This document shows, in pieces, positions 25,204 to 48,293 of a stretch of 63,390 nt of DNA. The translations under genes were made by a program, and so were the position numbers. The notes beneath the pieces were generated by a model. It worked only from the letters and a program-made list of their open reading frames with translations, ran no database searches and was not told where the DNA came from. The number at the start of each line of letters is the position of its first letter. Position 1 is the first letter of the stretch. The stretch spans positions 1 to 63,390 of IMG/VR virus record IMGVR_UViG_3300019458_000008. One strand, 5' to 3'. Source of the stretch: a virus.

Positions 25204-25206
25204 ATA

Positions 25207-25278: not shown

Positions 25279-25279
25279 A

Positions 25280-25349: not shown

Positions 25350-25418
25350 TGGAGCCAGTGCTGGGACTTGCACCCAGGAGACTAGGCTTACAAGGCTTGT
25401 CTCGTCTATACCTCTGGC
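25350..25418 (-). tRNA. aberrant tRNA-like gene (loop CTTGTAA, Thr UGU-like); no normal D arm
   Basis: Acceptor GCCAGAG/CACTGGC (A6-A67 mismatch), T arm CTGGG-TGCAAGT-CCCAG and CCA. The central 26 nt form one long bulged stem. Confidence 0.35.
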
Positions 25419-25419
25419 A

Positions 25420-25494
25420 TGGTCAGCGGGTGCGGATTCGAACCGCAACTAGCAGGGCCACAACCTACCGTGCTGCCGTTACACTACCGCGCTG
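25420..25494 (-). tRNA. tRNA-His (GUG), CCA encoded
   Basis: Anticodon arm GTAGG-TTGTGGC-CCTGC, D arm GTGT-AACGGCA-GCAC, T arm TGCGG-TTCGAAT-CCGCA, acceptor with one C-C mismatch. Confidence 0.7.
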
Positions 25495-25495
25495 A

Positions 25496-25570
25496 TGGAA
25501 CCTCCGGTGGGACTACGAACCCACATCCGACTGTTTCGAAGACAGCTGTTGGCTGCTTGCCTTCGGGGGC
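25496..25570 (-). tRNA. tRNA-Arg (UCG), CCA encoded
   Basis: Anticodon arm GCTGT-CTTCGAA-ACAGT, acceptor GCCCCCG/CGGAGGT (one mismatch), T loop 8 nt (TTCGTAGT). Confidence 0.65.
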
Positions 25571-25584
25571 TAGCGGCGGCTCGA

Positions 25585-26028
25585 TCATGCCATCACCGCC
25601 TCTCCGGTGGCCTGGGCGATGGCGGCGCGAGCCTTGGCGAGAGCCGCAGTACGGCTCTCTAGATAGTCGCCAGGCTCCCACGATTCCGGGAGGAGTGCCT
25701 GTAGCGCTTCGAGCAGCGCCGGGGCGGCGGCGATCAGCCGGGCGTTGGCGTCCGTCGTCTTCTGATTGCCCGTATCAATTACCCGGGCAACGGCCTCGTC
25801 TGGAACTCCACGGCCTAGAGGGCGGAGGATCAGGGGCTCGTCAAGGAATTGGTCATCGTGGCCCGCATAGGCCTGCCATGGCCCCGGTGTGTGCATAGTG
25901 GTCACGTTGCTACACATAAAGCAGGAGCAATCATCACCATGTAGGATAGCCAATGCGATCTGCGGAGTTAGCTTATTGGTAATGATAAGCCCGTAGATTA
26001 CATCAAGCCAGTCAATATCATACACCAT
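25585..26028 (-). CDS. hypothetical phage protein (C-terminal ..NARLIAAAPALLEAL.. type domain)
   Basis: 147-aa ORF with GGAGGAG upstream. G+C-rich insert inside the tRNA island. Confidence 0.65.
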   Translation of the reverse strand: MVYDIDWLDVIYGLIITNKLTPQIALAILHGDDCSCFMCSNVTTMHTPGPWQAYAGHDDQFLDEPLILRPLGRGVPDEAVARVIDTGNQKTTDANARLIAAAPALLEALQALLPESWEPGDYLESRTAALAKARAAIAQATGEAVMA

Positions 26029-26110
26029 AGTCTTCTCCTCCCAGTTTTATAGACACCGGGTTTGAACCGGCCGCATATGCCGTTCTGCTACAGTCCTACG
26101 TATCATATAC

Positions 26111-26195
26111 CGGTCTGCCCCTCACGCGGGGGCACGGGCGCACAGGCGCTGGCCTTGTAGCCTCCCGTGTGATCCCCCGAGCGAGAGGCAGACCG
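26111..26195. ncRNA. 85-nt GC-rich imperfect hairpin (structured RNA candidate)
   Basis: Outer 9-bp stem CGGTCTGCC/GGCAGACCG, inner GGGGG/CCCCC and CACGGG/CCCGTG helices. No ORF. Flanked by tRNA-Val and a tRNA fragment. Confidence 0.45.
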
Positions 26196-26205
26196 ATGAT
26201 ATCAC

Positions 26206-26280
26206 TGGTAGTCCCTGGAGGATTCGAACCCCCGACGCCTTGGGTGTAGACCAAGCGCTCTTCCGCTGAGCTAAGGGACT
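26206..26280 (-). tRNA. tRNA-Val (UAC) with C33, CCA encoded
   Basis: Canonical cloverleaf. Acceptor AGTCCCT/AGGGACT, D arm GCTC-AGCGGAA-GAGC, anticodon arm CTTGG-TCTACAC-CCAAG, T arm GGGGG-TTCGAAT-CCTCC. Confidence 0.75.
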
Positions 26281-26281
26281 A

Positions 26282-26346
26282 TGGGGGCCATGGCGAGAGT
26301 CGAACTCGCTAGCAACCTGAGGGGGGCCTCTCAGCTTATCTTCTAT
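26282..26346 (-). pseudogene. tRNA-like fragment (T arm + 3' end, no matching 5' acceptor strand)
   Basis: GCGAG-TTCGACT-CTCGC followed by CATGGCC-C-CCA. The upstream part forms only a CTGAG/CTCAG hairpin with an 8-nt loop. Confidence 0.35.
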
Positions 26347-26393
26347 TGGAGCACCCGAAGGGACTCGAACCCCCACGCCTACACTATGGGGGC
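26347..26393 (-). pseudogene. truncated tRNA (acceptor/D 5' part joined directly to T arm; anticodon arm missing)
   Basis: The 47-nt sequence is GCCCCCA-TA-GTGTAGGCG-TGGGGG-TTCGAGT-CCCTT-CGGGTGC-T-CCA. Its 5' 15 nt are also the last codons of the HNH ORF. Confidence 0.4.
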
Positions 26394-26702
26394 ATGTAAC
26401 TTTCGATGGCAGTTGGAACAGAGCACAATGCATTTTGCAATTTCATTCAAGATACGCTCTCTGCTCCACCCTCTCTCTACTGCCTTCGATATAGTGATAT
26501 CTTTAGCTCCAGGATGGTGGAAGTCCAGCGCACGTGAGTCATCTTCAAGACACGAGTCACATGAGAGGGATTCTTTGTACTCTCGAAGCCAAGTTCTAAG
26601 CGCTGCTCGGCGTGCTCTTACTTCCCGTTTCCGCTGCTCCGTATGCTTCTCGTACCAGCGGCGTCGGTATATCTTAGCCTTTGCTTTATCTTTAGTGGGC
26701 AT
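26379..26702 (-). CDS. HNH homing-type endonuclease
   Basis: ..CDSC..LDFHH..K..ISK...G.S...IL.EIAKCIVLCSNCHRKLH.. Confidence 0.85.
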   Translation of the reverse strand: MPTKDKAKAKIYRRRWYEKHTEQRKREVRARRAALRTWLREYKESLSCDSCLEDDSRALDFHHPGAKDITISKAVERGWSRERILNEIAKCIVLCSNCHRKLHAPIV

Positions 26703-26744
26703 CCAAACATCCTCTATGTTTAGTATACCACACGTATTGTTGGA

Positions 26745-26818
26745 TGGCGACCGCGACGGGAATCGAACCCGCCCTAGCAGCGTGACAGGCTACCGTGCTC
26801 CCAGCACACCCCGCAGTC
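26745..26818 (-). tRNA. tRNA-Asp (GUC), CCA encoded
   Basis: Acceptor GACTGCG/CGCGGTC, anticodon arm GTAGC-CTGTCAC-GCTGC, T arm GCGGG-TTCGATT-CCCGT. Confidence 0.8.
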
Positions 26819-26860
26819 ACATAACATGGCATCCTTGCCAGGCATTACCTATCTGCTATA

Positions 26861-27142
26861 TTATCCTCGACGGCGCTGTTGCTGCCGGCGCTTGTTTTTC
26901 CGCTCGTCCAGCGCCTTCTGGTAGGCATCCGTCCCACCAATCTCAGTCCGAATCTTCCGTAGCCCGGCCTTGACCTGGCTACCTGCCTTACGTAGATCCC
27001 CTGGCGCCTTCTTGGCACCCTGTACAGTTCGCTTTACACCCGGGGCCTTTGATGCAGCCTTACCAACTGCCATTCCAACTCCTCGGGCTGAGCTGCCCTT
27101 GACGGCCTTGACGCCCCTCTTTACAAGTTTCCTGATTGGCAT
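26861..27142 (-). CDS. highly basic small protein
   Basis: 93 aa, Lys/Arg/Gly/Ala-rich, ending KNKRRQQQRRRG. Confidence 0.55.
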   Translation of the reverse strand: MPIRKLVKRGVKAVKGSSARGVGMAVGKAASKAPGVKRTVQGAKKAPGDLRKAGSQVKAGLRKIRTEIGGTDAYQKALDERKNKRRQQQRRRG

Positions 27143-27187
27143 CTAATTGTCTCCTATCTCGACAGGGTTAGTACCCTATTGCTACTA

Positions 27188-27265
27188 TGGTGGCGGGAGG
27201 GGGAATCGAACCCACCCCTTGTCTTGCTTATGAGGCAAGTGAGTACACCAGTTCTCTATCCCGCT
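27188..27265 (-). tRNA. tRNA with CAU anticodon (elongator Met or Ile2), CCA encoded
   Basis: Anticodon arm CTTGC-CTCATAA-GCAAG, T loop TTCGATT, A1-C72 mismatch. Confidence 0.7.
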
Positions 27266-27282
27266 TCACTATATTATTGATC

Positions 27283-27353
27283 TGGTCGGGCAGGGCTTTC
27301 ACCTGCACATTGCGTCCCTTGTCGGGCCGTCTCAGATATTGGACTACCGACCA
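27283..27353 (-). ncRNA. tRNA-sized non-canonical element (perfect 7-bp terminal helix, no assignable anticodon, no CCA)
   Basis: TGGTCGG...CCGACCA ends pair. Internal arm GCAGG-TGAAAGC-CCTGC. The central loop CGACAAG lacks U33. Confidence 0.3.
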
Positions 27354-27364
27354 GATGGTCTGGA

Positions 27365-27438
27365 TGGTCGGGGAGCTAGGAATTGAACCCAGTCCACGTG
27401 CTCCCAGGGCACGTGTGCAACCGTCACACCCCACCCCG
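27365..27438 (-). tRNA. tRNA-Pro (UGG) with C33, CCA encoded
   Basis: Anticodon arm CGTGC-CCTGGGA-GCACG, D arm GTGT-GACGGTT-GCAC, T arm CTGGG-TTCAATT-CCTAG. Confidence 0.7.
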
Positions 27439-27847: not shown

Positions 27848-30800
27848 TTAGCCATGCGTGGCATACCAATTATATCCCCTCCCCATGGTCACTACAATAG
27901 GTACGCTATGTGGGTCCTCCATATCCCCTCCTCCGAATGGCTGGCCGAGTTCCATTGCTGCCGCCATAGATTCAGCATACCTCAAAACTTCGGGGTTGTC
28001 AAGGCCCCCCTCTCCGCCCTGCACGGACGTAAGTATTTCATCGTGGACTGTCAACAGTATCGTACCGCCCAGGATATCCTTGACCTTCAGTAGGGCGAAC
28101 CGCATCAGATCAGCCGTGGCCGTGCCCTGGACAATGTGACTGATGGTCTCGCGCTCAGCTGCCTCACGCTCCTGCTTATCACTGCTCATCAGGTTCGGTA
28201 TCCGTCTCGGGCGATGGAACAGGGTGTATGCGATATTACCGTTCTCTCTTGCCATGTGTACCGCATACGGTACCCACTCTTTGAAATATCTACCATAGAT
28301 ATCATGGATATTACCGATACCATGCCTGATCTCATTGAGGGTGGGAATCCCCAGGACTGCAAGGGCCGGATCCTCCAGCATTTGTTTCTCAATTACTGCA
28401 TGGATCTCGTCACCCTTACTACCGTACATAGCGCCAAAGAAAAAATTTTTCGCCCGTGTCTTATACGCATTGTATCTCACGGGGTCGTCATGCTTCTGGT
28501 CAGGCGTAACTTTGAACAGTCGTTCGACATTCAGTTCGTGAATATTAACCTTCGGGTCTCTGACCACTTGTAGCATAACCGGGTCCTGTGATACATAGGC
28601 GCCGACACGGACTTCGATCTGTCCATAGTCACCAGCGACTAGCACCTGTCCAGATTCTGCGATGAATACATTTCTCCATGGGACACGTACTTGTTGTAGG
28701 TTCGGGTCTTCCATAGAAAACCGATGACTCCGCACCCTCGTATTAGTAATCGTCGGATGAATCCGTCCGTCCTCCTCGGACTTGGCCAGCCACTCACGTA
28801 GGAACTGCGAGTGCTTCTCCAGCCGCTTCCATTCCAATACCAATGGTATCGCTGAATGCATCTCTCGCATCCTCAAGAGAGCCAATGCATCCACGGACGG
28901 CTGGTTAGTCTGCTGTGACAATCGCTGGACGGGGAATTGTAGATGTTCGTGTAACCACTCGACTAGCTGCTTCGGACTGTTCAACGATATCATCGTCCGC
29001 TCTGAAAACTTACCCTGCCCCCCACAGTCGGTACATCCTTCGCGTTTCCGCTTCCCATTCCTGCAAGTCTTGCACACCCAAACTCTGTCCGGCCTGTTGT
29101 ATCCACTCTCTCGCGCTAGGAAGTCCACGACTGATGCGAGATTGTTCTGCTTCTCTGTAACCTCTGCGAGCAGATCGACGGCCGTTTCGCGGTCGAAAAA
29201 AACTCCCGCCTCCTGCATATCAAGGAGAATAGTGACCATCGGAATATCCACGTTTGTATACAAGTCTGCCATCCGCTGATCAAACTTGGCTGTCAGTAGT
29301 TTCTCTAGTTCAACTGCCCAGTATGCATCTCCGCAATTATGTACTCCATAGCCTTCAACAATATATGTGCCACAGGACGTTTCGATTGAAACTACCCGGC
29401 GGCGACCGATGACGCGTAGTGACACAATTTCTACAGCCGCACTTCCCATGCGTTTGGCTGATGGAGACCAATTAGCTAGAAGACGAGTTGGACGGACTGA
29501 GCCAAGAAGACGCACAGTCTCCCGCCATCCGCCCCTAAGCTGCCATTTTACTAAGCCTTCTTGATTCCATATACTAGCATCGTATCCAGCACTCTCTGAA
29601 TAGGCTATAGCCCGTTCAGCTACCGCTCCAGGCTTCTGGCCCCATCCGATGCCGTTGTGTTGGTCACCCGCCTTTCTTAGGTAACCTTCTCCGTCGAGGT
29701 AGCCCGCAAACCAGCCCGCCTCACGACCATCGTCGAAGTCCCACGGATCAACAAACTTAGATAACCAGCGAGCACCCTGCCGCAGGGAACGCCAGGCATA
29801 TGGCTGGTTCCTTCCTGCCCCCGTTTTAGTAAGAAATGGATGATCTGAAGTTACGGTAAGACAGGTTCCGTCTGCAAGTTCGATACGAACGACTGGTCGT
29901 ATCTCATCATGTCGTGCGGTAACCACTGCATCGCACATCTTCTTTTGGGAATCCGTGAAACCAATCAGTATATCACCAATTTGAATATCGTCAAGCGGCG
30001 TCCAGCGTAGGTCACGGGTAAGAACCCTCATGTCTGGTGTAAAGCAACAATACTCGGCAACTAGCTCTGGGTCAATCGTAGATATCAACCTCCGATCACG
30101 GCCGCTACCAACGACCTCTTCGTAGGTAATATGTCGGTGTTCGAAATATTCTAATACTAACGGCTTGAGTCCCCTAACAGGGAGTCCCAGAAGATAGGCA
30201 GCCACGAGGCTATCTCCTGCCAGAGGGCCGACAGCGATCTTATGGCTTCGAAGTATAGCATAGTCGAACTTTGCAGAATGGCCAATCCAGGACAGTGCAG
30301 GAAGGCAGCGGTTGAGCGCAGCAACCCATTCTGCATCTCGATAATGGCCATAGAAACATCGGCGTCCGATGGCCACACCGATGCCGACGAGGCGATCTCG
30401 TTTTTCGTTTGCATCATCTCCAACGGGGTCAGTCTCCACATCGATTCCTGCGGGGCTTCCATCATGTTCACGGATTGCACGTTCGAACGCATCAATATCC
30501 TCCTTCGATTGTATCAATCTCCATTCGTATGGCTGTTCCCGCACACCATCCACTCTGGCCTCGGGTCGGCCAACGGGTAGGAGCGGCGCGACGAATTCGG
30601 AAACATCATAGTTGATAATCTCGTCGGCCTTATAGGCCGCATGTTGATAGGCGTTCCAGTATCGATGGCGATCAGTCTTAGGCGGAGTCTTAACTAGGTT
30701 ACGGGCCGTCGCTCGGTCAAGCCCATATTGTACTAACGCCCATTCAAGCCGGCTATCGAAGCGGCGAGGCAGAGGATCGTTAGCACCCGTTGCCTCGATA

Positions 30801-31009
30801 GTTACAAGTGCTACCGTTGGAGGCAGCAGTCGCCAGTAGTCTAGTGCTCGCTGACCACAGACTACCGTATCACCGGCCTGTGCGGCCTTCAATAGGGTAT
30901 AGCGGTCAGCGGGCTGGACTCCCTGACCCTGTAGACCAAGCATCTGTGCCCGTAGTACGGCCGCGTCTATTGTCGGCCCGATTGATTCGAGGTCAATATA
31001 GGCAGTCAA
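27848..31009 (-). CDS. polA: family A DNA polymerase with 3'-5' exonuclease domain, interrupted by an intein
   Basis: Exo I ..GIDVETD... Motif A ..VAGDYGQIEVRV... Motif B ..RAKNFFFGAMYG... Motif C ..LTVHDEIL.. Confidence 0.9.
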   Translation of the reverse strand: MTAYIDLESIGPTIDAAVLRAQMLGLQGQGVQPADRYTLLKAAQAGDTVVCGQRALDYWRLLPPTVALVTIEATGANDPLPRRFDSRLEWALVQYGLDRATARNLVKTPPKTDRHRYWNAYQHAAYKADEIINYDVSEFVAPLLPVGRPEARVDGVREQPYEWRLIQSKEDIDAFERAIREHDGSPAGIDVETDPVGDDANEKRDRLVGIGVAIGRRCFYGHYRDAEWVAALNRCLPALSWIGHSAKFDYAILRSHKIAVGPLAGDSLVAAYLLGLPVRGLKPLVLEYFEHRHITYEEVVGSGRDRRLISTIDPELVAEYCCFTPDMRVLTRDLRWTPLDDIQIGDILIGFTDSQKKMCDAVVTARHDEIRPVVRIELADGTCLTVTSDHPFLTKTGAGRNQPYAWRSLRQGARWLSKFVDPWDFDDGREAGWFAGYLDGEGYLRKAGDQHNGIGWGQKPGAVAERAIAYSESAGYDASIWNQEGLVKWQLRGGWRETVRLLGSVRPTRLLANWSPSAKRMGSAAVEIVSLRVIGRRRVVSIETSCGTYIVEGYGVHNCGDAYWAVELEKLLTAKFDQRMADLYTNVDIPMVTILLDMQEAGVFFDRETAVDLLAEVTEKQNNLASVVDFLARESGYNRPDRVWVCKTCRNGKRKREGCTDCGGQGKFSERTMISLNSPKQLVEWLHEHLQFPVQRLSQQTNQPSVDALALLRMREMHSAIPLVLEWKRLEKHSQFLREWLAKSEEDGRIHPTITNTRVRSHRFSMEDPNLQQVRVPWRNVFIAESGQVLVAGDYGQIEVRVGAYVSQDPVMLQVVRDPKVNIHELNVERLFKVTPDQKHDDPVRYNAYKTRAKNFFFGAMYGSKGDEIHAVIEKQMLEDPALAVLGIPTLNEIRHGIGNIHDIYGRYFKEWVPYAVHMARENGNIAYTLFHRPRRIPNLMSSDKQEREAAERETISHIVQGTATADLMRFALLKVKDILGGTILLTVHDEILTSVQGGEGGLDNPEVLRYAESMAAAMELGQPFGGGDMEDPHSVPIVVTMGRGYNWYATHG
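29336..30046 (-). mobile_element. class 1 intein (237 aa) in the polymerase exonuclease domain
   Basis: Begins CFTPDMRVLT (TGC at 30044-30046). Has block B ..LTVTSDHPFLT.., a single LAGLIDADG-like ..FAGYLDGEGY.., and ends ..YIVEGYGVHN, followed by a +1 Cys (29333-29335). Confidence 0.8.
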
Positions 31010-31362
31010 AGCAGCCCTCCCCGTTCCTCGCGGCGCATGTCGGCCTTAGACTCGGCCATGTAGTCGCGCTGGCCCTCATCGCGGTAGTCGGCGCACTGTC
31101 CGCAGTCGGGGTCGCAGCCGGCAATCTCGGCCTCGGCGCGGCCTTCCTGGCGCAGCTCTTCCGCTGTCTGCGTGTACTCGGCGAGGGCGCGCCGGGCAGT
31201 GGTGATGGCAGTGGTGATACGGTTTAGCTGCTCGATATCCATAACGTCATATACGTCAACGATTCTCGCAATCGCCGCTATCGCCGCGTCCACCTCCGCG
31301 ATGGTGCGAGTCGGCGCCCAGTCTTCGCGCTCCTCAGCACTCACCCACTGGTCACTCATCAC
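31006..31362 (-). CDS. hypothetical protein, MSDQ-cassette member 4
   Basis: 118 aa starting MMSDQWVSAE. The start lies inside the 77-bp repeat. Confidence 0.6.
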   Translation of the reverse strand: MMSDQWVSAEEREDWAPTRTIAEVDAAIAAIARIVDVYDVMDIEQLNRITTAITTARRALAEYTQTAEELRQEGRAEAEIAGCDPDCGQCADYRDEGQRDYMAESKADMRREERGGLL

Positions 31363-31410
31363 TCGGCCTCCCTTGGGAGCGGGCGTCGGCCTCAGCAGCA
31401 GCGAGGGCCT
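31334..31410. repeat. 77-bp perfect direct repeat, copy 1 (gene-junction cassette)
   Basis: Identical to 31674-31750. It spans the stop of one gene, the SD sequence and the start of the next. Confidence 0.95.
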
Positions 31411-31702
31411 CCTGGACGGTTTTGTCGAGCCGAGCTATCCAACCCACATGAGGATCATCGCCAAGGAACTGCGTCCGCATTTCTAAGAGCACCTCAGCCA
31501 GAAATTTGATGGTGCTTTCGGCCTCGGCGCACCGCTGCTCGGCGGCAGCCACATAATCGCTTATCAGCTTCATACTGCGGATCTCGTCAATCGCTCCGTT
31601 CACATAGCCGTCCCAGTCCTTGCGGGCGGTTTCACGAATTGCCCGTACTAGACGGTAAAGAGGTGTGTCGTGTTCAGCACTCACCCACTGGTCACTCATC
31701 AC
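31352..31702 (-). CDS. hypothetical protein, MSDQ-cassette member 3
   Basis: 116 aa, starts MMSDQWVSAE and ends ..AAAEADARSQGRPSDE. Confidence 0.6.
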   Translation of the reverse strand: MMSDQWVSAEHDTPLYRLVRAIRETARKDWDGYVNGAIDEIRSMKLISDYVAAAEQRCAEAESTIKFLAEVLLEMRTQFLGDDPHVGWIARLDKTVQEALAAAEADARSQGRPSDE

Positions 31703-31750
31703 TCGGCCTCCCTTGGGAGCGGGCGTCGGCCTCAGCAGCAGCGAGGGCCT
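31674..31750. repeat. 77-bp perfect direct repeat, copy 2
   Basis: Identical to 31334-31410. Confidence 0.95.
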
Positions 31751-31991
31751 GGCGCAGTCTGTTCCAACGCGCTAGTACCGACCGAGCAGCCTTTTTCCCG
31801 ATCAGGTTGTACAGATACGCCTCGGTGAAGAATGGCGCATGTTCGTCACCTGGCTCATAGTGGCCTGATTCACAGAACGGTACAGCTATTTCAGCGTCAT
31901 CTCCCAGTACGAGAGTATCTAAGGACACAACCAGCTCCCATACTATCCCCACCCGCTGCTCAGCCTCGGCGTTCACCTGCTGGTCACTCAT
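31692..31991 (-). CDS. hypothetical protein, MSDQ-cassette member 2
   Basis: 99 aa, starts MSDQQVNAE, with the same C-terminal 16 aa as member 3. Confidence 0.6.
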   Translation of the reverse strand: MSDQQVNAEAEQRVGIVWELVVSLDTLVLGDDAEIAVPFCESGHYEPGDEHAPFFTEAYLYNLIGKKAARSVLARWNRLRQALAAAEADARSQGRPSDE

Positions 31992-32334: not shown

Positions 32335-32701
32335 GCCCGGCCTCCTCCCAGCGCTCTACAGCGGACTCTCCCAACGCCGCAACTAAGAGTTCACGATCAA
32401 CATCAAGCATGTTAATACCTCCAGGCCAACTACCATCTTTGGCAACGTAAGATTCGTAGTAGATTGCTGGCATCATGCCTCGCCAGGCTTTGGCACATCG
32501 TAACAACCAGTAACGTCTAATAGGAGGAGGAGCACGATTCGTGACTGTAAGGGCGTATGCCTCATCATCATGAATGACACTAATACCCCTTGAATCAAAA
32601 TCAGTAAACCATTCATCTCCCTCCCCTTGTTCATCTAATCCTATGAATCGAGCAAGAACCGTTATTTGTCTGCGTTCTTTCCGGGTAATTTTTTGGCTCA
32701 T
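32327..32701 (-). CDS. hypothetical protein
   Basis: 124-aa ORF. Confidence 0.6.
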   Translation of the reverse strand: MSQKITRKERRQITVLARFIGLDEQGEGDEWFTDFDSRGISVIHDDEAYALTVTNRAPPPIRRYWLLRCAKAWRGMMPAIYYESYVAKDGSWPGGINMLDVDRELLVAALGESAVERWEEAGHE

Positions 32702-33258
32702 CGGGCTCTTCCTACATATCGATAAACGATAGCTCGTACCAAACTATCCCTAATACTTGCTGTTATCGCTGGCCCTGTCCTCAAAGCGTATGAAGGATGG
32801 GGTGCCCCTATTACTATTATTCCAGAGGGTAAGACGCGGGCCAAATCAGCTTGTTCCATAGCCCGTTTTCCAGGAAAGTATAGAGCCCCCGCTGTCGCTC
32901 CTAGCGTAACAATGCATCGCAGATTCTGCAAGCTATCCAGGTTCCGTTGCAAGTATAACGTAGGACACAGACTTGTCGCATCGGGGTAGGGCCAAAGGTC
33001 GTTGTTCGGAGGCCTACAGTGTACTACATTATCAAGAAAAAGCTCCTCCCTGATTAAGCCTACAGATTGCAGGATATTATTCAGATGCTGACCGGCTCGC
33101 CCTACGAACGGGTGGCCGTCAATATCCTCGTCCTTACCTGGGGCTTCACCGATCAGAGCTAGCCACGTATCACTGTCCCCCGTCCCAGGGACTACCCGAG
33201 TCCGGTGTTTGGCCAATCGGCAGCGTGTACAGGATAGCTCCTCAGCCGTCGATACCAT
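32698..33258 (-). CDS. udg: family 4 uracil-DNA glycosylase
   Basis: ..CTRCRL.., ..LIGEAPGKDED..G.PFVGRAG..L.. and ..GAPHPSYALR.. Confidence 0.85.
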   Translation of the reverse strand: MVSTAEELSCTRCRLAKHRTRVVPGTGDSDTWLALIGEAPGKDEDIDGHPFVGRAGQHLNNILQSVGLIREELFLDNVVHCRPPNNDLWPYPDATSLCPTLYLQRNLDSLQNLRCIVTLGATAGALYFPGKRAMEQADLARVLPSGIIVIGAPHPSYALRTGPAITASIRDSLVRAIVYRYVGRAR

Positions 33259-34606: not shown

Positions 34607-34843
34607 CTAGTTGGCGCCCTTCAGACCACCACTGGCCGTTGCTCGGGAGACGATCAGGATCGTGTCGCCGTCGCGCAGCTCGGCGTTGTCACCGACCTTG
34701 CGGCCGTTGACCGTCACGTCGTATGAGGAACCGTGCGGCGCGAACTTCTCGATGGCATCGCCGACCGAACTAATACCGTCATCGAGCGAGAACTGCTCGA
34801 AGCGCTCTCCCTGGACTACGGAAATCTGTCCATTACTTGCCAT
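34607..34843 (-). CDS. ThiS/MoaD-type ubiquitin-like beta-grasp protein with C-terminal ..SGG-LKGAN
   Basis: 78 aa. ..YDVTVNGRKVGDNAELRDGDTILIVSRATASGG is followed by a 5-residue tail. AAGGAGG lies upstream. Confidence 0.75.
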   Translation of the reverse strand: MASNGQISVVQGERFEQFSLDDGISSVGDAIEKFAPHGSSYDVTVNGRKVGDNAELRDGDTILIVSRATASGGLKGAN

Positions 34844-34956
34844 TTCCTTGTGCCTCCTTGTGAATGTACACGTGTAGATTCAACTATATCTGTTATCTAT
34901 GCATCCCTGCGCCACTCTCGATCCCTCATCAATATCCCATATAATCACCCTCTCTC

Positions 34957-35157
34957 CTAATTCAGGCTGATAAACCGCCCACCGATGGTAGACGTAAGTT
35001 GATCGTGTAACGCGACTTCGATCTTCTCGGACTCCTCGATCTCTCGCCTGATACTGTCCATCCGGCTGACTAAGTGTTCATACTCACTCCGTAGCCAGTG
35101 GGTGTAGCCGCGTTGCTTGGCCAACAGGTCTTCGAGTACGGTGTCAGGTAATGTCAT
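34957..35157 (-). CDS. 66-aa coiled-coil protein of the Ubl operon
   Basis: ORF track gives 34957-35214. The in-frame ATG at 35157 (MTLPDTVLEDLL..) overlaps the E1 stop by 14 nt. Confidence 0.5.
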   Translation of the reverse strand: MTLPDTVLEDLLAKQRGYTHWLRSEYEHLVSRMDSIRREIEESEKIEVALHDQLTSTIGGRFISLN

Positions 35158-35833
35158 GATCGCTGTCCTCCTCCCCATATTGCAGCCTATTGATTTCCAT
35201 ATTCGTTCCGACATGCCAGACCAGCATCTTCGGTAGCTTCATGCCCCGGCACCAGTTGTTAATCCAGCATGTAACCTGAGATGCAACCCACATTCCCATG
35301 AACGCTGTCCCCTCCGTACCACATGGGACATCGGGAACGTCCTCTTCACGAGGCAGTGCACCGAGATACTCAGGGATTTGTTCTGGCGTTGCTGAACAAA
35401 GCACGGCGTTCTCCCCCTGTGCTCGGGTATCAATGAACAGTGGAATATTATGTTTCATACTCCACTTAGCAATTGCAGCCCTTCCATCCAGTGTATCAAC
35501 ACATGAGATCACAGCTCCCACGTTCGTAGGAGCCGACTGGTGGGGGAATAGCTCCGCGTAACTCTTGAGAGATAGGCCAAACAGTGACTGTTCCAGACAC
35601 TGGCCTTTGCGGAGGCCGATGTTCTCCTCTATGTATGCCTGGACTCCGACGTTCACATCCTCGACCATATCATCTCCATCGAAGATATGGACTTGCCTGA
35701 CAGCCCGTGATAGCGCATGGGCTGACCACGATCCAAGCATACCCGCACCCGCGATAATGACCTCCATTGCTGCCATGCGTGGGTGGACAATCTGGTGCTG
35801 CCGCTCATGTAGAATCCCTTGTAGCAATGGCAT
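35144..35833 (-). CDS. minimal E1-like ThiF/MoeB-family adenylyltransferase
   Basis: ..VIIAGAGMLGS.. Rossmann loop, ..IFDGDDMVEDVNVGVQ.., ..VISCVDTLDGRAAIA.., ..PCGTEGTAFMGMWVAS.. Confidence 0.75.
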   Translation of the reverse strand: MPLLQGILHERQHQIVHPRMAAMEVIIAGAGMLGSWSAHALSRAVRQVHIFDGDDMVEDVNVGVQAYIEENIGLRKGQCLEQSLFGLSLKSYAELFPHQSAPTNVGAVISCVDTLDGRAAIAKWSMKHNIPLFIDTRAQGENAVLCSATPEQIPEYLGALPREEDVPDVPCGTEGTAFMGMWVASQVTCWINNWCRGMKLPKMLVWHVGTNMEINRLQYGEEDSDHDIT

Positions 35834-35835
35834 CT

Positions 35836-36990
35836 TTACTTCCCCTTCCGTGCTGCCCGCTGCTTACGCCGACCGCCGGCATTCTGCATGTTATCATTAT
35901 CCTTCCACCGGATAACCTTCTCGTCCTTGTTCAAGTACGCATGCGAGGGATCCTTATGGCTCCCGCTCAGTACGCACTGGTTCCCCTTAAATGAGGCTTT
36001 GCAACGCCCGGCCTGCATCGTATCCTGTTGGTATTGCTGCTGCCCTTTACCCGGCTCGAACGTTTCGTACTCATCCTTGTCCTGCGAGGACCACCATAGA
36101 TGCTGTGGGCTACTGTGTCCCTGTGGTAACATACAGCCTCGAAATCCTCCTGTACTGTTGACCCACCCGACCTGACATAACGACTTCCGATCACGGGCTG
36201 TGATCCGGCCGTTGCCCCGCTTGAACATCTGGATCAAGTCATCCATATCCTCATCCGTAAGGACAACTCCAGCCATGTCAGCATATGCAGCAGCCGCAGC
36301 TTTCGCATCCTCGTCATCCATATCATCGATAGTCTCGTCATCCAGTGACGTATCGTTGATATTATCCACCTGTCGTTTGATACATTGCTGACAGCAGCAA
36401 GCGTCAGCGTGTTTCGAGAACTGTAATGGATAGGTCTTCCGCCGCACATCTTTCAGTTGTTCATCAATCTCCCTATCCAAGTAGGCGAGGTCTGGTGGCT
36501 CAACTGACGGTATGACAGTAGCCCTTAAGTGCAGTGGCTCACGGACAATGAGCCAGCTAGTCATTTCCATCTTCGTATTGACAACCAGCCCAATCATCCA
36601 TGACAACTGCTCCTCACGGAGCAAGTCCCACAACTGTTCCGTATCAGTATTCGATGGTGATGTGCCCATTGAGGCATGGGAGTGCCAGATCCCCCGCCAG
36701 ATACTCCACAATGAGGTCTGCTCCTGCTGTGCAGTCTCGTTTGCTAGCTCGACAAGGTACTTGTGGAAGTCCTTAGCCCCCACATCGAAGTGGGCGCTTT
36801 GTACTTCTTGTGGTGGAATCCGAATATCCGTTGCACGGAAGTACGTATCTGTATTGTCAGCATTATCGGCCGGCTGAACTCGCTCGATGCGGAGTAGGCC
36901 GCCGACCTCTAGTGTTTTATCATGTAGAACTGCCCGCCGGATTTTATATGCCGTCTCTTGCGTAATGTGTAGTTCGATATCCGATCCCAT
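35836..36990 (-). CDS. JAB/MPN (JAMM) metalloprotease with about 230-aa C-terminal extension
   Basis: E28 (..LEVGG..) and H103-S-H105-x7-S113-x2-D116 (WHSHASMGTSPSNTD). Confidence 0.8.
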   Translation of the reverse strand: MGSDIELHITQETAYKIRRAVLHDKTLEVGGLLRIERVQPADNADNTDTYFRATDIRIPPQEVQSAHFDVGAKDFHKYLVELANETAQQEQTSLWSIWRGIWHSHASMGTSPSNTDTEQLWDLLREEQLSWMIGLVVNTKMEMTSWLIVREPLHLRATVIPSVEPPDLAYLDREIDEQLKDVRRKTYPLQFSKHADACCCQQCIKRQVDNINDTSLDDETIDDMDDEDAKAAAAAYADMAGVVLTDEDMDDLIQMFKRGNGRITARDRKSLCQVGWVNSTGGFRGCMLPQGHSSPQHLWWSSQDKDEYETFEPGKGQQQYQQDTMQAGRCKASFKGNQCVLSGSHKDPSHAYLNKDEKVIRWKDNDNMQNAGGRRKQRAARKGK

Positions 36991-36996
36991 GATATT

Positions 36997-38877
36997 TTAC
37001 TCCTCCACGTCCTGGTCCTCGTAGTTGTAGTCATCATCGTCCGCTAGAACTTGTGATACTTCGGCCGCCGGTGTCGAATCCGGTATACGCCGATAGTCAA
37101 TATCCGGATGTTCATCCAGCCACGTATGTAAACGTTCAGTTGACTCCGTATCCGGCGGTAACTCTAGGTCGTATTCCCTACTAGGAAAGCATAAGGTTAA
37201 TAAGCACGACCGGCATATGGCCGCACTCTGCCAAGGGGTACTTCTATCTATGTAAATATTAGGAATAAAGCGGTACAGAATATTAAACTGTCTGTTACAC
37301 TCGTTGCATCCTATATCGTATAAATTAGGGACAACGAAGATACTAAAGGTCTCGTGGGGGGGCGATAGGGAAGTTGCCTGTAGTAGCAGTTCAGTCGGGT
37401 AGCTCTCAATACTATATGGCACACACCGACATCTTTTAGAGGCTAAGTTACAACCAGCACATGTAGGCGTATGAGTTTCACTGATACAGAATGTGCATCT
37501 ATGCCTCACCTCCGATAGCGACTGCCGTGCTTGGTATACCGAATTCTGGCCAAAGCAGCCAACACAAGGGCCATTTGCCGGAACGGGTGCTTCGGGAAGC
37601 CCTTCTTCTAGAAATATCCTATCCCACCAAGCGGGAGTTGGTGGATAAGGGATTTGATAGCGGTGCTGAGATCTTAGATGCGTAGAGGGGCTGCTGTTAG
37701 TTGATTGTGCGTCTTGTTCCATAGTAATTACACGTTCAGATACAAGGGCAGTGACTGGGACATGCCGGACACGTCGAGTTCGGTTTGATGTGACTACGGT
37801 TACACGCTGGTCTGCTATCCAACGTTCCCACGTAGGTGTCATATACCGTGGTGTCTTGAATAGTGATGCCCAACCTGTGGTCTGGAACTGACCACTTAGC
37901 TGACTGTTCCGATCCCAGCCGTACCGCCAACGTTCCATTATACTGACAACACCGCGTAGATCACCTGCTTGGAACAGATTGTCTATAAGCCGTTCAACTG
38001 ATTCGCCGCTAATGCTTCGTCCGAAGCAAATAGTATCCGAAGCATGTGGATGAAGTAGGCTCCCATCATCGTTGGTTGGATAGGGAGTGACTGTCGCGTC
38101 GTGTGGCTGAAACAGAAACTCTGTAATCGAGGTCATGTACGCACCACGCTCATAAACCAGCAATACTGGACGGAAGGCTACGTATAGAGAATTGGGTGGA
38201 ATATGCAGCTGGAACCTACCGTTGTTCGCGTGATTGTATTCACCAAGGGACGGGGGACAGTTACTTACTTCACCTTCATCATGTCCCCGCGTAGCCCAAT
38301 GGAGCACTTCTTCATTGTCAGCGAAGAACTCGGTTAATGCAGCCCGATCAAGATAGCGTTCAGTATTACCTAATGCGGACATTTGATTAATATTATGCAA
38401 AAGCAAATCCCGTTCCCGCTGACACTGCTCTTGATTTGCATCTCTCTGGGCTATGTATGCTCGATAGGTGTCCACTCGGTCTGCCAGCCTGCCTTGGGCA
38501 GATTGGGGCAGTATACTTAAAACTAATGCGGTGTGCTCGGGCGGCCCACTGCCATCACTATCATATACAGGAGCCTCCTCGCCTCGGTGTACGACAAAAG
38601 TTGTCGGGCTTAGCATGCTTACAACTAGGCTAGTGTCAGCATCAAGGATTGGTCGAAGAGTGCGAGTGATTCGCCGTGCAATTGCCCGCGCTGTCCGCAA
38701 ACGTCCAGTATTTGTGCGTATAGCCTCCTTAATGTCGATGATCTCATTTGTTTCGAGATTTACTATGTTTATGTAGGGCCCCATGAACCCGGGCGCAATC
38801 CTGTCGCTAACTGCGCGCAAATCCCGAGTCGCACGCATGGGGGTAAATCGTTGAGTTTCCGATTGAACTCTTGGCAT
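36997..38877 (-). CDS. large E2 (UBC)-like protein with Cys-rich zinc-finger-like C-terminal region
   Basis: ..TPYPTNDDGSLLHPHASDTICFG.. (HPH 276-278, Cys284 codon at 38026-38028). Residues about 455-560 carry CxxC/CxC pairs (CVGC, CTFC, CAGC, CRC, CNEC, CRSC). Confidence 0.6.
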   Translation of the reverse strand: MPRVQSETQRFTPMRATRDLRAVSDRIAPGFMGPYINIVNLETNEIIDIKEAIRTNTGRLRTARAIARRITRTLRPILDADTSLVVSMLSPTTFVVHRGEEAPVYDSDGSGPPEHTALVLSILPQSAQGRLADRVDTYRAYIAQRDANQEQCQRERDLLLHNINQMSALGNTERYLDRAALTEFFADNEEVLHWATRGHDEGEVSNCPPSLGEYNHANNGRFQLHIPPNSLYVAFRPVLLVYERGAYMTSITEFLFQPHDATVTPYPTNDDGSLLHPHASDTICFGRSISGESVERLIDNLFQAGDLRGVVSIMERWRYGWDRNSQLSGQFQTTGWASLFKTPRYMTPTWERWIADQRVTVVTSNRTRRVRHVPVTALVSERVITMEQDAQSTNSSPSTHLRSQHRYQIPYPPTPAWWDRIFLEEGLPEAPVPANGPCVGCFGQNSVYQARQSLSEVRHRCTFCISETHTPTCAGCNLASKRCRCVPYSIESYPTELLLQATSLSPPHETFSIFVVPNLYDIGCNECNRQFNILYRFIPNIYIDRSTPWQSAAICRSCLLTLCFPSREYDLELPPDTESTERLHTWLDEHPDIDYRRIPDSTPAAEVSQVLADDDDYNYEDQDVEE

Positions 38878-45256: not shown

Positions 45257-45637
45257 ATGTCTAGAGAAGTAATTATAGCTGATGGTAGGCCTGTAGTCGC
45301 AACCCGCGTGAGCCGTAAAGAGGCCATGGAGCGGGCCGAGCTGTTTGTTGCCAAGAACCTGCCGAAGTACCTCAAGAAGCTACATGAGCTGGCAATGGGC
45401 ATCACGGCGGTCAAGGACACGAAGGCTGGGCCGAAGATATACATGGAGCCACCCGATCGGCAGGCTCTGCAATACCTAATTGACCGAGGCCTTGGTAAGA
45501 TTCCCGACCGCGTGGAGCTGACCGGTGAAGATGGCGGTCCAATGGCTATAATCCCTTGGATGCCGAAGAGGTTGCTGGATGAGCAGGTCATTGACGGCGA
45601 GGCTAGGGACGTAACCGACGAAAGTCCAGATGGCTAA
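45257..45637 (+). CDS. terS: small terminase subunit candidate
   Basis: 126 aa directly upstream of, and overlapping, terL. ..PPDRQALQYLIDRGLGKIP.. is a pattern common in TerS proteins. Confidence 0.55.
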   Translation: MSREVIIADGRPVVATRVSRKEAMERAELFVAKNLPKYLKKLHELAMGITAVKDTKAGPKIYMEPPDRQALQYLIDRGLGKIPDRVELTGEDGGPMAIIPWMPKRLLDEQVIDGEARDVTDESPDG

Positions 45638-48293
45638 GACTAGACTCTCGGAGAAGCAAAAGGCCATCCGTCGTGGGGGCGCTGACAGCAATCGGAAGGT
45701 CTTGTATCCGATCCACGACGGCCCGCAAGAACTTCTAATGACTTCGGACGCTGAGGAGATTTTGTACGGAGGTTCATTAGGAGGTGGTAAGGACTTGAGT
45801 GTAGGGACTAAAATTCCAACTCCTATGGGTTGGAAGTTAAATGGTGACCTCGTAGCAGGTGATTACGTCCTCGACGAACAAGGGCGACCTAACAAAGTTC
45901 TTGTTGCCTACCCGTCACACATGCCAGAACGAGCATACCGCCTTGTTTTTGATGATGGCTCCACAATTGAGGCTAGCAATACTCATCTGTGGCTCACGTA
46001 CAGTGCCGCTGAATTAGCCGCACTGACGCGCCGTGATCCAGCCTGGCGAGCACGTCGCCGAGCAAAGCGACCATCACGGGCAAGAGGGAACAAGTCCGCT
46101 ATATTCACGGCTGCAATCGCAGAGCGCAATAGACGGCATGCAGCTTTGCAAACATTAGAAGCACCCACTGGGAGCGTGAGGACTACTGACGAGGTCGTTC
46201 GTACGCTTCGCCTTCCGTCCGGTCAGACAAACCATGCAATCCCAGTAGCCAAAGCTCTTGAGCTGCCTGAGAAGGACTTTCTTCTCGATCCTTATCTCCT
46301 TGGCGTCTGGCTTGGCGATGGTACTGCTGTGAATGGGCAGATATGCACAATGGATGTTGAAATTGATGCAGCATTCATTGCCGCAGGGTTCTCCTTCGGT
46401 AAGGCATCTTCACAAGGTAAGGCGTGGGCACACAAAGTTCTAGGGCTTCAGCCGCTACTCCAGCAACTCGACGTTCTCGGTAATAAACACATTCCACCAC
46501 AATACCTTCGTGCATCTAAAGCCCAACGCCTTGCCCTTCTACAAGGGCTCATGGATACGGACGGTACCGTATGCTCAGCAGGCCTCAGTCGTGAGAACCG
46601 TTCTAATGGCGTCGAGTTTACCAATACTAATAAGAATCTTATCGATGGGGTCTACGAGCTTATCGTTTCATTAGGCTGGAAGGCACGTATAATCGAAGGT
46701 CGCGCGAGGCTGAATGGTAAGGATTGTGGCCCCAAGTGGGATATCAAATGGACGCCAGATGAATATGTCTTTCGATTGACTCGCAAGCGTAAAAAGCAGC
46801 GGCTTGCAACCCGGCGAGTAACTAAGTTCCGGTATATCGTAGATGCAATTCCTATTGAGCCTATACCAATGCGTTGCATTTCTGTCGAGTCCCCTTCTTC
46901 TCTTTACCTTGCCGGAGACTCGATGATTCCTACACACAATTCATATGGACTCCGGGCCTGGGGGGTTAGCTACTGCCTAGTATACCCGGGTGCCAAGGTA
47001 GCCCTGTTCCGCCAGACGTTCCCCCAGCTTGAGCAGTCCCACCTGATTGCTATCCAGCAGGAAGTGCCAGAGTCGGTAGCTCATTACTCTCCAAAAGACC
47101 ATACGTTGATATTTCCGAACGGTTCGATTCTCTTCTTCTGTGTCTGTGAGAAGGACGAAGACGCTCGGAAGTTTGACACAACTGAGTTCGATGCACTGCT
47201 CTTCGATGAGCTGACCCACTTTACCAAGTTCCAATATGAATATCTGATCAGCCGAATGCGATCAACCAAGGATTGGTGGCCGGGACCGAGGATACGTGCA
47301 GCTGCAACCCCGCTTGGTCGTGGGCATGATTGGGTAAAAGAACGCTGGGTATCTGTTCCCACGGAAGATGGCGGACCGATTCTGCCATTTAAGGTATGGA
47401 CCGCCCCACGAAACCAGGGAGGCATGAAACGCCTGTTTATCCCTGCGCGTGTTACTGATAACCCCGCGCTTATGAACAGTGACCCCGACTATATCCGACG
47501 ACTGGAAACACTGCCATATGAAGAGCGGATTGCAAAGATCGAGGGGAACTGGGATACCTTCACGGGCCAGTTCTTCCAGCGATGGCGGCCGTCCGTCCAT
47601 ATCATCGCCCAGATGGACATCCCTCCAGACTGGGACCGGTTCATGTGCGTAGATTATGGGTTCTTCAAGCCCTACGCTGTCCTGTGGTTTGCCCGGCCCC
47701 CTGGTAGCGATACGGCAATATTTTATAGGGAACAGTACGGGACGGGTGTTAAGCTTGATGAACAGGTCCGCCTAGCACGTGAAGCGGTCAAGGCAACCGA
47801 AGAAAAGATTAAGGCCGTGGTTCTCGACCCAGCCATGTTTGGTAAGGTCAACCACAAGGGCGAGCAGTTCGAGCCTATGGCTTCCGATTGGAAGGCGGTA
47901 TTTAATAACGTGGTACCCGGTAACAATGAACGAATCGTCGGCTGGCGGCTCATGCGCGAGATGCTTGACTGGCAGGAGCGACCGGATGGGGGCGTACTGG
48001 TTCCCCCACGATTATTCTTTATCCAGGGTACCTGCCCAAATGCGATTCGAACACTGCCCAATCTAATCTGTAATGAACATAACCTGGAGGATGTTGATAC
48101 GGACAAGGAGGACCACGCCGCTGACGCAATTCGCTATGGCTTGCGCCATGCCTTTGAGGGACGTGGGCGGACTGGACGGGGAAAACGGTACTATCTAACA
48201 TCGGATGGCATCAGGACTAGTCCAGTTGCACGGCCAGCCCGAGCCCTTGACCCAGATATGCGCCTACGAGAGATGGGCGTACTCGACTGGTAA
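45630..48293 (+). CDS. terL: large terminase subunit, interrupted by an intein in the Walker A loop
   Basis: GSLGGGK|intein|S reconstitutes GxxxxGKS. Walker B ..ALLFDELTHF... C-terminal nuclease ..DKEDHAADAIRYG.. Confidence 0.9.
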   Translation: MAKTRLSEKQKAIRRGGADSNRKVLYPIHDGPQELLMTSDAEEILYGGSLGGGKDLSVGTKIPTPMGWKLNGDLVAGDYVLDEQGRPNKVLVAYPSHMPERAYRLVFDDGSTIEASNTHLWLTYSAAELAALTRRDPAWRARRRAKRPSRARGNKSAIFTAAIAERNRRHAALQTLEAPTGSVRTTDEVVRTLRLPSGQTNHAIPVAKALELPEKDFLLDPYLLGVWLGDGTAVNGQICTMDVEIDAAFIAAGFSFGKASSQGKAWAHKVLGLQPLLQQLDVLGNKHIPPQYLRASKAQRLALLQGLMDTDGTVCSAGLSRENRSNGVEFTNTNKNLIDGVYELIVSLGWKARIIEGRARLNGKDCGPKWDIKWTPDEYVFRLTRKRKKQRLATRRVTKFRYIVDAIPIEPIPMRCISVESPSSLYLAGDSMIPTHNSYGLRAWGVSYCLVYPGAKVALFRQTFPQLEQSHLIAIQQEVPESVAHYSPKDHTLIFPNGSILFFCVCEKDEDARKFDTTEFDALLFDELTHFTKFQYEYLISRMRSTKDWWPGPRIRAAATPLGRGHDWVKERWVSVPTEDGGPILPFKVWTAPRNQGGMKRLFIPARVTDNPALMNSDPDYIRRLETLPYEERIAKIEGNWDTFTGQFFQRWRPSVHIIAQMDIPPDWDRFMCVDYGFFKPYAVLWFARPPGSDTAIFYREQYGTGVKLDEQVRLAREAVKATEEKIKAVVLDPAMFGKVNHKGEQFEPMASDWKAVFNNVVPGNNERIVGWRLMREMLDWQERPDGGVLVPPRLFFIQGTCPNAIRTLPNLICNEHNLEDVDTDKEDHAADAIRYGLRHAFEGRGRTGRGKRYYLTSDGIRTSPVARPARALDPDMRLREMGVLDW
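45792..46940 (+). mobile_element. class 3-type intein (383 aa) with LAGLIDADG homing endonuclease
   Basis: Starts with Asp (no N-terminal nucleophile). Block B ..SNTHLW.. (Trp), block F ..MRCISVE.. (Cys), block G ..IPTHN|S (Thr). Two dodecapeptide motifs, LLGVWLGDGT and LLQGLMDTDGT. Confidence 0.75.

Follow-up and report, generated by a model that had tools for sequence, protein, structure and literature searches.

The bacterial Bil system, in the outline given in PMC10557695, comprises four separate genes encoding a ubiquitin-like protein (Ubl) with a conserved C-terminal glycine and a short tail, an E2, a deubiquitinase (DUB) and an E1, with no E3, and its protease BilC cleaves the residues past the conserved glycine of the Ubl (PMC10557695). 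Bub systems (6E/DUF6527), as sketched in PMC11601596, use Ubl-E2 or E2-E1 fusions, oxyester catalysis on Ser/Tyr and a DUF6527 serine protease. Bacterial operons of E1, E2, JAB and Ubl genes were catalogued by Iyer et al. (2006), and for phages that catalogue holds the lambda/T1 pair only, in which the tail-assembly proteins I (Ubl) and K (JAB plus NlpC/P60) form the one phage Ubl-JAB pairing noted before (PMC1779556); for the Asgard virus Nidhogg, E1-like genes alone have been reported (10.1101/2021.07.29.454249). Here we describe a block of four minus-strand genes in a virus record (IMG/VR IMGVR_UViG_3300019458_000008, positions 1 to 63,390; "the window" below means this whole stretch of 63,390 nt) that encode a large protein with an invariant cysteine, a JAMM protease, a minimal E1 and a small Ubl. 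We judge it probable, if only just, that the block is a phage-encoded Ubl conjugation cascade, expressed with the early/replication genes and vertically inherited as a fixed four-gene unit within one phage lineage. Our full-text literature search, whose coverage was incomplete so that an earlier description is possible, found no bacteriophage module of E1, JAB and Ubl (with or without E2), in line with an earlier note on this DNA that knew of no such operon.

That note, made from the letters of the window alone, had listed five minus-strand open reading frames (ORFs), the fifth being a "coiled-coil" protein between the E1 and Ubl genes, and its coordinates, strand and intergenic gaps (6 nt and 2 nt between the genes for the 626-aa protein, JAMM protease and E1) proved exact. 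Every motif it quoted is also present, namely the Ubl end ...DGDTILIVSRATASGGLKGAN; AGAGMLGS, FDGDDMVEDVNVGVQ and PCGTEGTAFMG in the E1; E28, H103-S-H105, S113 and D116 in the JAB protein; and LLHPHASDTIC284FG in the 626-aa protein. Since many independent contigs carry homologues of four of the five ORFs in an identical arrangement, with the quoted catalytic residues invariant, the ORFs of the module are real genes. Homologues of the E1 with 35-55% identity occur in Hainich groundwater, a metagenome assembly with the prefix SDBT01, a marine sediment metagenome (LAZR01), soil and IMG/VR viral contigs. The related contigs measure 40-62 kb where complete, and their module proteins are 23-55% identical. 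In every locus long enough, an iterative hidden Markov model analysis of about 15 distinct contigs recovered the co-oriented order E2-like, JAB, E1, Ubl, and the large-protein homologue lies directly upstream of the JAB gene in each complete related locus. On these contigs the block always lies a few kb from the genes for a family A DNA polymerase (PolA) and a helicase, and usually from one for uracil-DNA glycosylase (UDG). Considering that the order and the proximity to PolA and helicase are fixed in all loci, the block has diverged together with the replication module within a single phage lineage.

Like Bil, the window has four separate genes encoding a tailed Ubl, a Cys-bearing E2-like protein, a JAB protease and an E1, with no gene for an E3. 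Unlike Bil, whose E1 is outlined in PMC10557695 and PMC11601596 as IAD-AAD-CYS, its E1 is a single adenylation domain of 229 aa; the order in the window and all related loci is E2-like, JAB, E1, Ubl rather than Ubl-E2-DUB-E1; the E2-like family spans 246-766 aa, with an HPH motif and usually a Cys-rich tail; and the module is borne by a phage rather than placed in a bacterial defence island. No Bil-type match was returned by PADLOC or by NCBIfam, the latter scanned with eight proteins. Unlike those of Bub, the genes are unfused, and both the E1 (C171) and the large protein (C284) carry an invariant cysteine; no DUF6527 match was seen in a Pfam scan of the module proteins. The label "Bil/Bub-type", which the earlier note had given to the operon, must therefore be dropped on the grounds of E1 architecture, gene order, fusions, Ser/Tyr chemistry and the DUF6527 protease. 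Among defence systems, the nearest profiles for the E1 and JAB proteins are Cap2 and Cap3 of the cyclic oligonucleotide-based antiphage signalling system (CBASS), and the PDB matches of the E1 include Cap2 structures. Like Cap2, the E1 is a single-domain enzyme of the homodimer type and has a Cys close to its crossover loop. Unlike in type II CBASS, E2 and E1 are unfused and the moiety to be conjugated is a free-standing Ubl rather than the C-terminus of a CD-NTase; neither a CD-NTase nor an effector was seen among the window proteins scanned, which cover part of its ORFs, and the module does not belong to type II CBASS. The combination of a small beta-grasp protein with GG plus extra residues, a JAMM protease and a ThiF-type E1 is shared with CysO/Mec+/MoeZ, QbsE/QbsD/QbsC and SAMP/UbaA/HvJAMM1. 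These sulfur-carrier trios, and SAMP/UbaA/HvJAMM1, need no canonical E2. Unlike them, the window adds a strictly co-conserved Cys-bearing protein, and its E1 lacks a rhodanese domain and scores below equivalog thresholds. The I-K pair of lambda/T1, finally, lies in a tail module without E1 or E2 and with the Ubl fused to another domain, whereas the block of the window lies in the replication arm.

The match of the E1 to Pfam ThiF (PF00899) is above the gathering cut-off (1.3e-10, 41.3 bits vs 28.1), and alignment to E. coli ThiF by hhalign gave a probability of 97.2%, with the invariant C171 falling on ThiF Cys184, the crossover-loop cysteine; the ThiF/E1 adenylation domain of the earlier note is thus borne out. 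Across 19 sequences, G29xGMxG34, D52, N61, Q65, K76, D113, R118, D135, R137 and C171-G172 are invariant, so that no nucleotide-binding residue varies, and R11-Q12, at the Arg-finger position of homodimeric ThiF/MoeB enzymes, is nearly so. A profile built from these sequences matched TcdA, UBA5, ThiF, Uba4, MoeB, MccB and Cap2 structures in the PDB at 3e-12 to 1e-7 with no clear favourite, and the protein also matched 13 PADLOC "E1-E2" models (best 7.6e-6). The sequence thus reads as that of an active-looking, single-domain, homodimer-type E1 of the ThiF/MoeB/UBA5/Cap2 type. Since its scores are far under every NCBIfam equivalog cut-off (ThiF 43.9/159, TcdA 25.6/304, MoeB 19/266, PRTRC ThiF 29/145 bits), it is not an orthologue of ThiF, MoeB or TcdA, nor of any other named enzyme. 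The earlier note had allowed that the protein might group with sulfur-carrier enzymes whose partners are encoded elsewhere; the equivalog scores are far too low for this, and a Pfam scan of 25 window proteins found no sulfur-pathway partner (desulfurase, rhodanese, PP-loop or ThiG/MoaE-type).

The 384-aa protein is, from its motif and profile matches, a member of the JAMM/MPN+ metalloprotease family. Its N-terminal 150-160 residues match Pfam Prok-JAB above threshold (7e-07, 29.6 bits vs a cut-off of 25), and it matches 13 PADLOC "JAB" (Cap3-type) models, the best at 1.3e-10. None of the 20 relatives departs from H103, S104, H105, S113 and D116, and 19 of them have E28, the remaining sequence being truncated at its N-terminus, so that the complete JAMM motif which had been read from the window stands. 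The C-terminal half is variable among relatives, and a zinc-knuckle-like C-x8-C-x5-H-x5-H in this extension (aa 330-350) is found in five of the 20 family members.

The 78-aa protein had been described as a ThiS/MoaD-type Ubl. The pair Gly72-Gly73 near its C-terminus is invariant in 19 non-redundant sequences and is followed by a variable tail of 3-8 residues that loosely follows x-[KAS]-[GQS]-A, extended by 0-4 residues; in the window this tail is LKGAN. The fold matches were all sub-threshold, though all of them were to beta-grasp families: the single protein reached Pfam ThiS at 5.6e-4 (20.8 bits vs 22.5), with TGS and Ub-Mut7C also appearing, and among 16 family members weak matches fell to ThiS (six), TGS (four) and SAMP2 (two), with Ub-Mut7C again recurrent. 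The family profile found MoaD (1vjk) as its best match in the PDB (E 0.0064), and hhalign against E. coli ThiS gave P 0.01 with the last strand, GDxIL, aligned. The ATG of the Ubl gene follows an AAGGAGG ribosome-binding site at a distance of 9 nt. From this conservation we predict that the mature protein would end in Gly72-Gly73 with the LKGAN tail removed, and a cut between ...ASGG and LKGAN is the best-supported cleavage. The invariant GG is taken as the activation site because the second glycine of the tail is Ser or Gln in some members, and cleavage after that residue (GGLKG|AN) was rejected on the same grounds. The ...GAN end of the window protein also raised the chemistry of MccB, in which the E1 adenylates a conserved C-terminal Asn (MccB/PaaA type). 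Members of the family end in A, AA, AAH, ATL, ATR, AR, ACS, ASA or ALALR; since the terminal Asn is not conserved, MccB-type chemistry is ruled out, and the family does not belong to the MccB/PaaA type.

The first gene of the block encodes the 626-aa protein for which a UBC-like segment, and hence an E2, had been proposed. Its family has 17 members of 246-766 aa that share only ~23% identity; in the window protein, the conserved core lies between an N-terminal region that is lineage-specific and a Cys-rich C-terminal one. F235, P237, H276-P277-H278, C284 and G286 are invariant in every alignment of the family, and G320 is invariant in two of three alignments and nearly so in the 13-sequence core alignment. 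The resulting motif is HPH-x5-13-C-x-G, and HP[HN]-x5-13-C-x-G has 0 occurrences in 683,364 residues of unrelated phage ORFs. When the core was aligned by hhalign to 11 hand-entered UBC E2 sequences, HPH fell on the HPN of the E2s and C284 on the catalytic cysteine, with a score of 24.2 (P 0.0033); controls scored 8-17 for 30 column shuffles, 13 for the reversed profile and 10-12 for the E1, JAB and Ubl families. The third residue of the window motif is His where UBC HPN has Asn. AlphaFold modelling of aa 140-500 from a three-sequence alignment was unusable (predicted local distance difference test, pLDDT, 31.8), and AlphaFold2 on aa 150-420 with 11 sequences reached a pLDDT of 49.8 and a predicted template modelling score (pTM) of 0.49. 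In this low-confidence model, N-terminal helices are followed by a five-strand meander, a loop bearing HPH and the cysteine, and four helices, an order that would be that of UBC. Downstream of the core, at least two CxxC motifs occur in 15 of the 17 members, five cysteines are invariant in a six-sequence alignment (Table 1), and the profile of the region weakly resembles the double zinc-ribbon protein 6ydh (E 0.026); the cluster is a putative zinc ribbon, possibly for binding a target or partner. In one lineage, a 246-aa member is without the Cys-rich region and has the HPH...C core.

Several points weigh against this interpretation of the block. The hhalign probability between the core of the large protein and UBC is only ~10%, the signal is local and a global alignment gave P 0.74. 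No E2 or other family was found for this protein in Pfam (six members scanned, Prok-E2 included), NCBIfam, PADLOC or PHROGs, and no E2 in PDB sequence searches with the single sequence and two family profiles. A word-indexed search and phmmer against 1.84 billion representative proteins matched the protein to itself only, and a six-sequence profile added just two family members. Foldseek with the pLDDT-49.8 model returned nothing significant, and no E2, from the PDB and BFVD, a negative that is uninformative because the quality of the model is low. The earlier note had itself held that a lack of significant profile and structure matches would tell against a UBC fold, and at ordinary significance this is what the searches gave; what remains of its assignment is the local profile-profile match around HPH...C (P 0.003). 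A UBC/E2 fold is therefore not demonstrated. Beyond the large protein, the matches of the Ubl family are all under curated thresholds. Other sets of E1, Ubl and JAMM dispense with an E2 or serve as sulfur carriers. On balance we think it fairly probable that the core is a UBC-fold E2; the E2 nature of the large protein is plausible, unproven, and the weak link of the interpretation.

The fifth ORF of the earlier note, the 85-aa "coiled-coil" protein, was rejected as a member of the module. Related loci have no homologue of it, Pfam, PADLOC and PHROGs gave no family match, and 71 nt of the ORF are shared with the 3' end of the E1 gene; between their E1 and Ubl genes, relatives carry other small ORFs or no ORF at all. 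A GGAGGAGG ribosome-binding site precedes an internal ATG at 35157, and a 66-aa form that starts there and overlaps the E1 stop codon may be translated. Small ORFs inside the module differ between lineages. At locus L002, of a sub-lineage, a 66-aa hydrophobic, membrane-like ORF (4742-4942) is inserted between the JAB and E1 genes.

The module is not general to phages with family A polymerases, a distribution we considered and rejected since 80 of 80 IMG/VR contigs with a distant PolA are without it. Searches for relatives beyond the lineage found none by tblastn among 72,556 plasmids and, at the nucleotide level, none by blastn of the cassette region against INPHARED; a narrow pattern scan of 185,579 representative genomes also found none, which does not prove absence. 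The cassette is nonetheless not unique, in that it defines a phage lineage and has analogues in cultured GenBank phages. In INPHARED, tblastn with the E1 detected distant ThiF genes (25-28% identity, 5e-8 to 6e-4) in 29 Flavobacterium phages (FpV4 group), Dulem virus 41 and Xanthomonas/Erwinia jumbo phages including PhiXhv-15 and Ep032. The records compared were FpV4 NC_041872 (gp53-gp50), Dulem virus 41 PP511520 and Xanthomonas phage PhiXhv-15 PV764602. Where annotated, these genes are labelled "thiamine biosynthesis protein" or "ThiF family protein" in GenBank, and the former label is probably misleading.

Ahead of the ThiF gene of FpV4 and Dulem virus 41 lies one for a JAMM protein (HIHSH-x7-SGTD and HSHH-x7-SGED, respectively), which is preceded in turn by one for a 373-420-aa protein with an HxH...C.G site, and the first gene encodes a Ubl-like N-terminus ending in ...KSGG or ...SSG and then a long tail. 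This order, Ubl-E2-like-JAB-E1, is that of Bil and differs from that of the window, and the Ubl candidate is fused to a long C-terminal tail whereas that of the window has a short one. The module sits among primase, UDG and exonuclease genes. In PhiXhv-15, which has its ThiF gene next to topoisomerase genes, a 141-aa protein ends in ...AIAKASGG-stop, and a second protein, of 892 aa, contains RIHPH...HGSLCLG and is rich in Cys at its C-terminus; the latter is homologous to the core of the window protein (hhalign 62%, P 7e-5), and no JAB gene was found within 5 kb. No statistical link to the window families was obtained for the Ubl candidates of the three phages or for the large proteins of FpV4 and Dulem virus 41, and all of these are compared by motif and position only.

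The setting of the block agrees with the early/replication arm proposed by the earlier note, its neighbours being the polymerase, helicase and UDG genes (Table 1). The ends of the window share a 123-nt exact terminal direct repeat and, because of this repeat, the window is a complete phage genome of ~63.27 kb, terminally redundant or else a circular assembly. By GC skew and ORF orientation, a minus-strand block from ~12 to 40 kb diverges from a plus-strand structural block near 41 kb, and the cassette lies at the promoter-proximal end of the replication arm. The window also encodes a lysozyme, an MT-A70 methylase, an ERCC4 nuclease and an RNase H-like exonuclease. A UDG-family gene lies a few kb from the module in the window and at loci L002 (7936-8577), L006 (13663-14226) and L007 (13307-13822), as well as in FpV4 (L009, 839-1588) and Dulem virus 41 (L038, 6183-6896), and at locus L004 a UDG domain is fused to the polymerase; this proximity may simply reflect membership in the replication module. 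Six tRNA genes (Gln-CTG, His-GTG, Val-TAC, Asp-GTC, Met-CAT, Pro-TGG) are clustered between the region of the helicase and that of the polymerase. Just upstream of the polymerase gene, three tandem ORFs of ~100-118 aa contain a 77-nt exact direct repeat with a spacing of 340 nt and look like tandem paralogues or a recent duplication; the two that were scanned had no Pfam match. A nucleoside 2-deoxyribosyltransferase-like protein (Pfam 4.3e-10) and the MT-A70 methyltransferase (1e-17), both encoded on the arm of the module, hint at nucleotide or DNA modification functions.

Table 1. Positions in the window of the module genes, their sites and other features discussed in the text.
Feature	Position	Strand	Remarks
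Large conserved protein, candidate E2-like	36997-38877	minus	626 aa, ORF
Conserved core of the large protein	37798-38235	minus	aa 215-360; beta-rich segment, HPH, Cys284, then helices
HPH276-278	38044-38052	minus	invariant motif
Cys284	38026-38028	minus	invariant
Cys cluster C438, C441, C473, C476, C483	37429-37566	minus	invariant in six-sequence alignment
JAMM/MPN+ metalloprotease	35836-36990	minus	384 aa, ORF
JAMM catalytic domain	36511-36990	minus	aa 1-160; Pfam Prok-JAB, PADLOC JAB
Zinc-knuckle-like motif of JAB protein	35941-36003		C-terminal extension
Minimal E1-like adenylating enzyme	35144-35833	minus	229 aa, ORF
"Coiled-coil" ORF	34957-35214	minus	85 aa
Ubl (beta-grasp) precursor	34607-34843	minus	78 aa, ORF
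Gly72-Gly73 of Ubl	34625-34630		invariant
LKGAN tail of Ubl	34610-34624		predicted to be removed
UDG	32698-33258		near Ubl module
Large terminase	45630-48293		phage marker
Family A DNA polymerase	27848-31009		phage replication marker
Helicase	21124-22779		phage replication marker
Three tandem ORFs	31006-31991		apparent paralogues
77-nt direct repeat	31334-31410 / 31674-31750		exact
Six-tRNA cluster	25129-27438	minus
MT-A70 methyltransferase	16463-17176	minus
Nucleoside 2-deoxyribosyltransferase-like protein	12537-13034	minus
Terminal direct repeat	1-123 = 63268-63390		exact

We infer the chemistry of the cascade, the E2 role of the large protein and its target from these sequences. The JAMM protease would cut the 78-aa precursor past Gly73 (...ATASGG|LKGAN) and expose the Gly-Gly carboxylate, and the minimal E1, as a homodimer, would adenylate Gly73 with ATP; the Ubl would then probably move onto the invariant crossover-loop Cys171 of the E1 as a thioester. 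From there it would pass to the invariant Cys284 of the 626-aa protein, in which HPH-x5-C-x-G would play the part of HPN...Cys in UBC, and early in infection, with no separate E3, the 626-aa protein would attach it to lysines of a target that belongs to the host or to the phage. The zinc-ribbon-like C-terminal region would be the likely specificity element, and the JAMM protease could also reverse the mark.

An unlikely alternative is that conjugation is independent of an E2, as in archaeal SAMP/UbaA/HvJAMM1 or the TtuB/TtuC type of Thermus, so that the E1 alone would hand the Ubl to its targets, the JAMM protease would mature and remove it, and the 626-aa protein would be a target, an adaptor or an unrelated zinc- or metal-binding protein with HPH...C binding metal. 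Secure identifications exist only for the E1, JAMM protease and Ubl, neither family nor fold searches gave a significant match for the large protein, and a His-x-His and Cys together with many CxxC could be metal ligands. However, the block always begins with the gene of the large protein, whose HPH...C.G site does not vary; in hhalign, UBC outscores the shuffles as well as the three unrelated families used as controls, with the register correct; and the lineage without the Cys-rich tail retains the core.

The same chemistry could also serve another role, either as phage-carried defence, by Bil-like tagging of the virion proteins of competitors, or as a decoy or deconjugase against host Bil or CBASS Cap2, and we regard both uses as quite improbable. 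The characterised bacterial relatives all act in phage defence, as far as the accounts in PMC10557695, PMC11601596 and 10.1101/2023.09.04.556158 go, and the JAB and E1 proteins match PADLOC models of the Cap3 and Cap2 types. However, the block is fixed inside the replication module and has co-diverged with it, rather than lying in a variable accessory island, the modules of FpV4, Dulem virus 41 and PhiXhv-15 are likewise among replication genes, and no integrase was seen among the window genes scanned by Pfam and PHROGs, which are part of its ORFs. Since the narrow scan of representative genomes returned no relative, there is also no sign of a recent capture from a host defence island.

Very unlikely, finally, is a sulfur-carrier pathway of the CysO/Mec+/MoeZ, QbsE/QbsD/QbsC or ThiS/ThiF type, in which the JAMM protease would trim the Ubl, the E1 would adenylate its GG, a host sulfurtransferase would make the thiocarboxylate and the large Cys/Zn protein would insert sulfur into a phage-specific nucleotide, tRNA or small molecule: such pathways are generally known to use this parts list (a Ubl with post-GG residues, a JAMM protease and a minimal ThiF-type E1), ThiF, TcdA, Uba4 and MoeB are among the top matches of the E1 in NCBIfam and the PDB, C171 aligns with the cysteine that handles sulfur in ThiF, and the phage has six tRNA genes, but the E1 falls far below the equivalog cut-offs and lacks a rhodanese domain, Pfam showed no partner among 25 window proteins, the large protein matches no sulfur-insertion family, and the E1 and JAB proteins also match the Cap2/Cap3 conjugation models.

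Taking the phage conjugation cascade together with its analogues, we put forward a wider view tentatively, as possible but rather short of probable: several unrelated lineages of tailed phages, namely the ~60-kb phages of groundwater, soil and sediment, FpV4-like phages of Bacteroidota and Xanthomonas/Erwinia jumbo phages, would carry a complete Ubl cascade as a fixed part of their early/replication genes, built on an unrecognised HPH...Cys family of E2s usually fused to zinc ribbons, free of E3, and tagging proteins during take-over of the cell. The question can be tested directly, since phages that bear the analogues have been cultured and their hosts (Flavobacterium psychrophilum, Xanthomonas hortorum, Erwinia) are known. 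If this view is true, the HPH...Cys protein would be a new catalytic family outside all profile libraries, and the GenBank label "thiamine biosynthesis protein" on ThiF genes of the FpV4 and PhiXhv types would be corrected. At present, Ubl conjugation in prokaryotes (CBASS Cap2/Cap3, Bil, Bub) is seen as a form of host immunity against phages. Eukaryotic viruses that bring their own enzymes of the ubiquitin system offer a parallel. Ubl tagging would then be a weapon of the virus as well as of its bacterial host, and phages would also write and erase Ubl marks, reversing the expected ownership of this chemistry in the conflict between phage and host.

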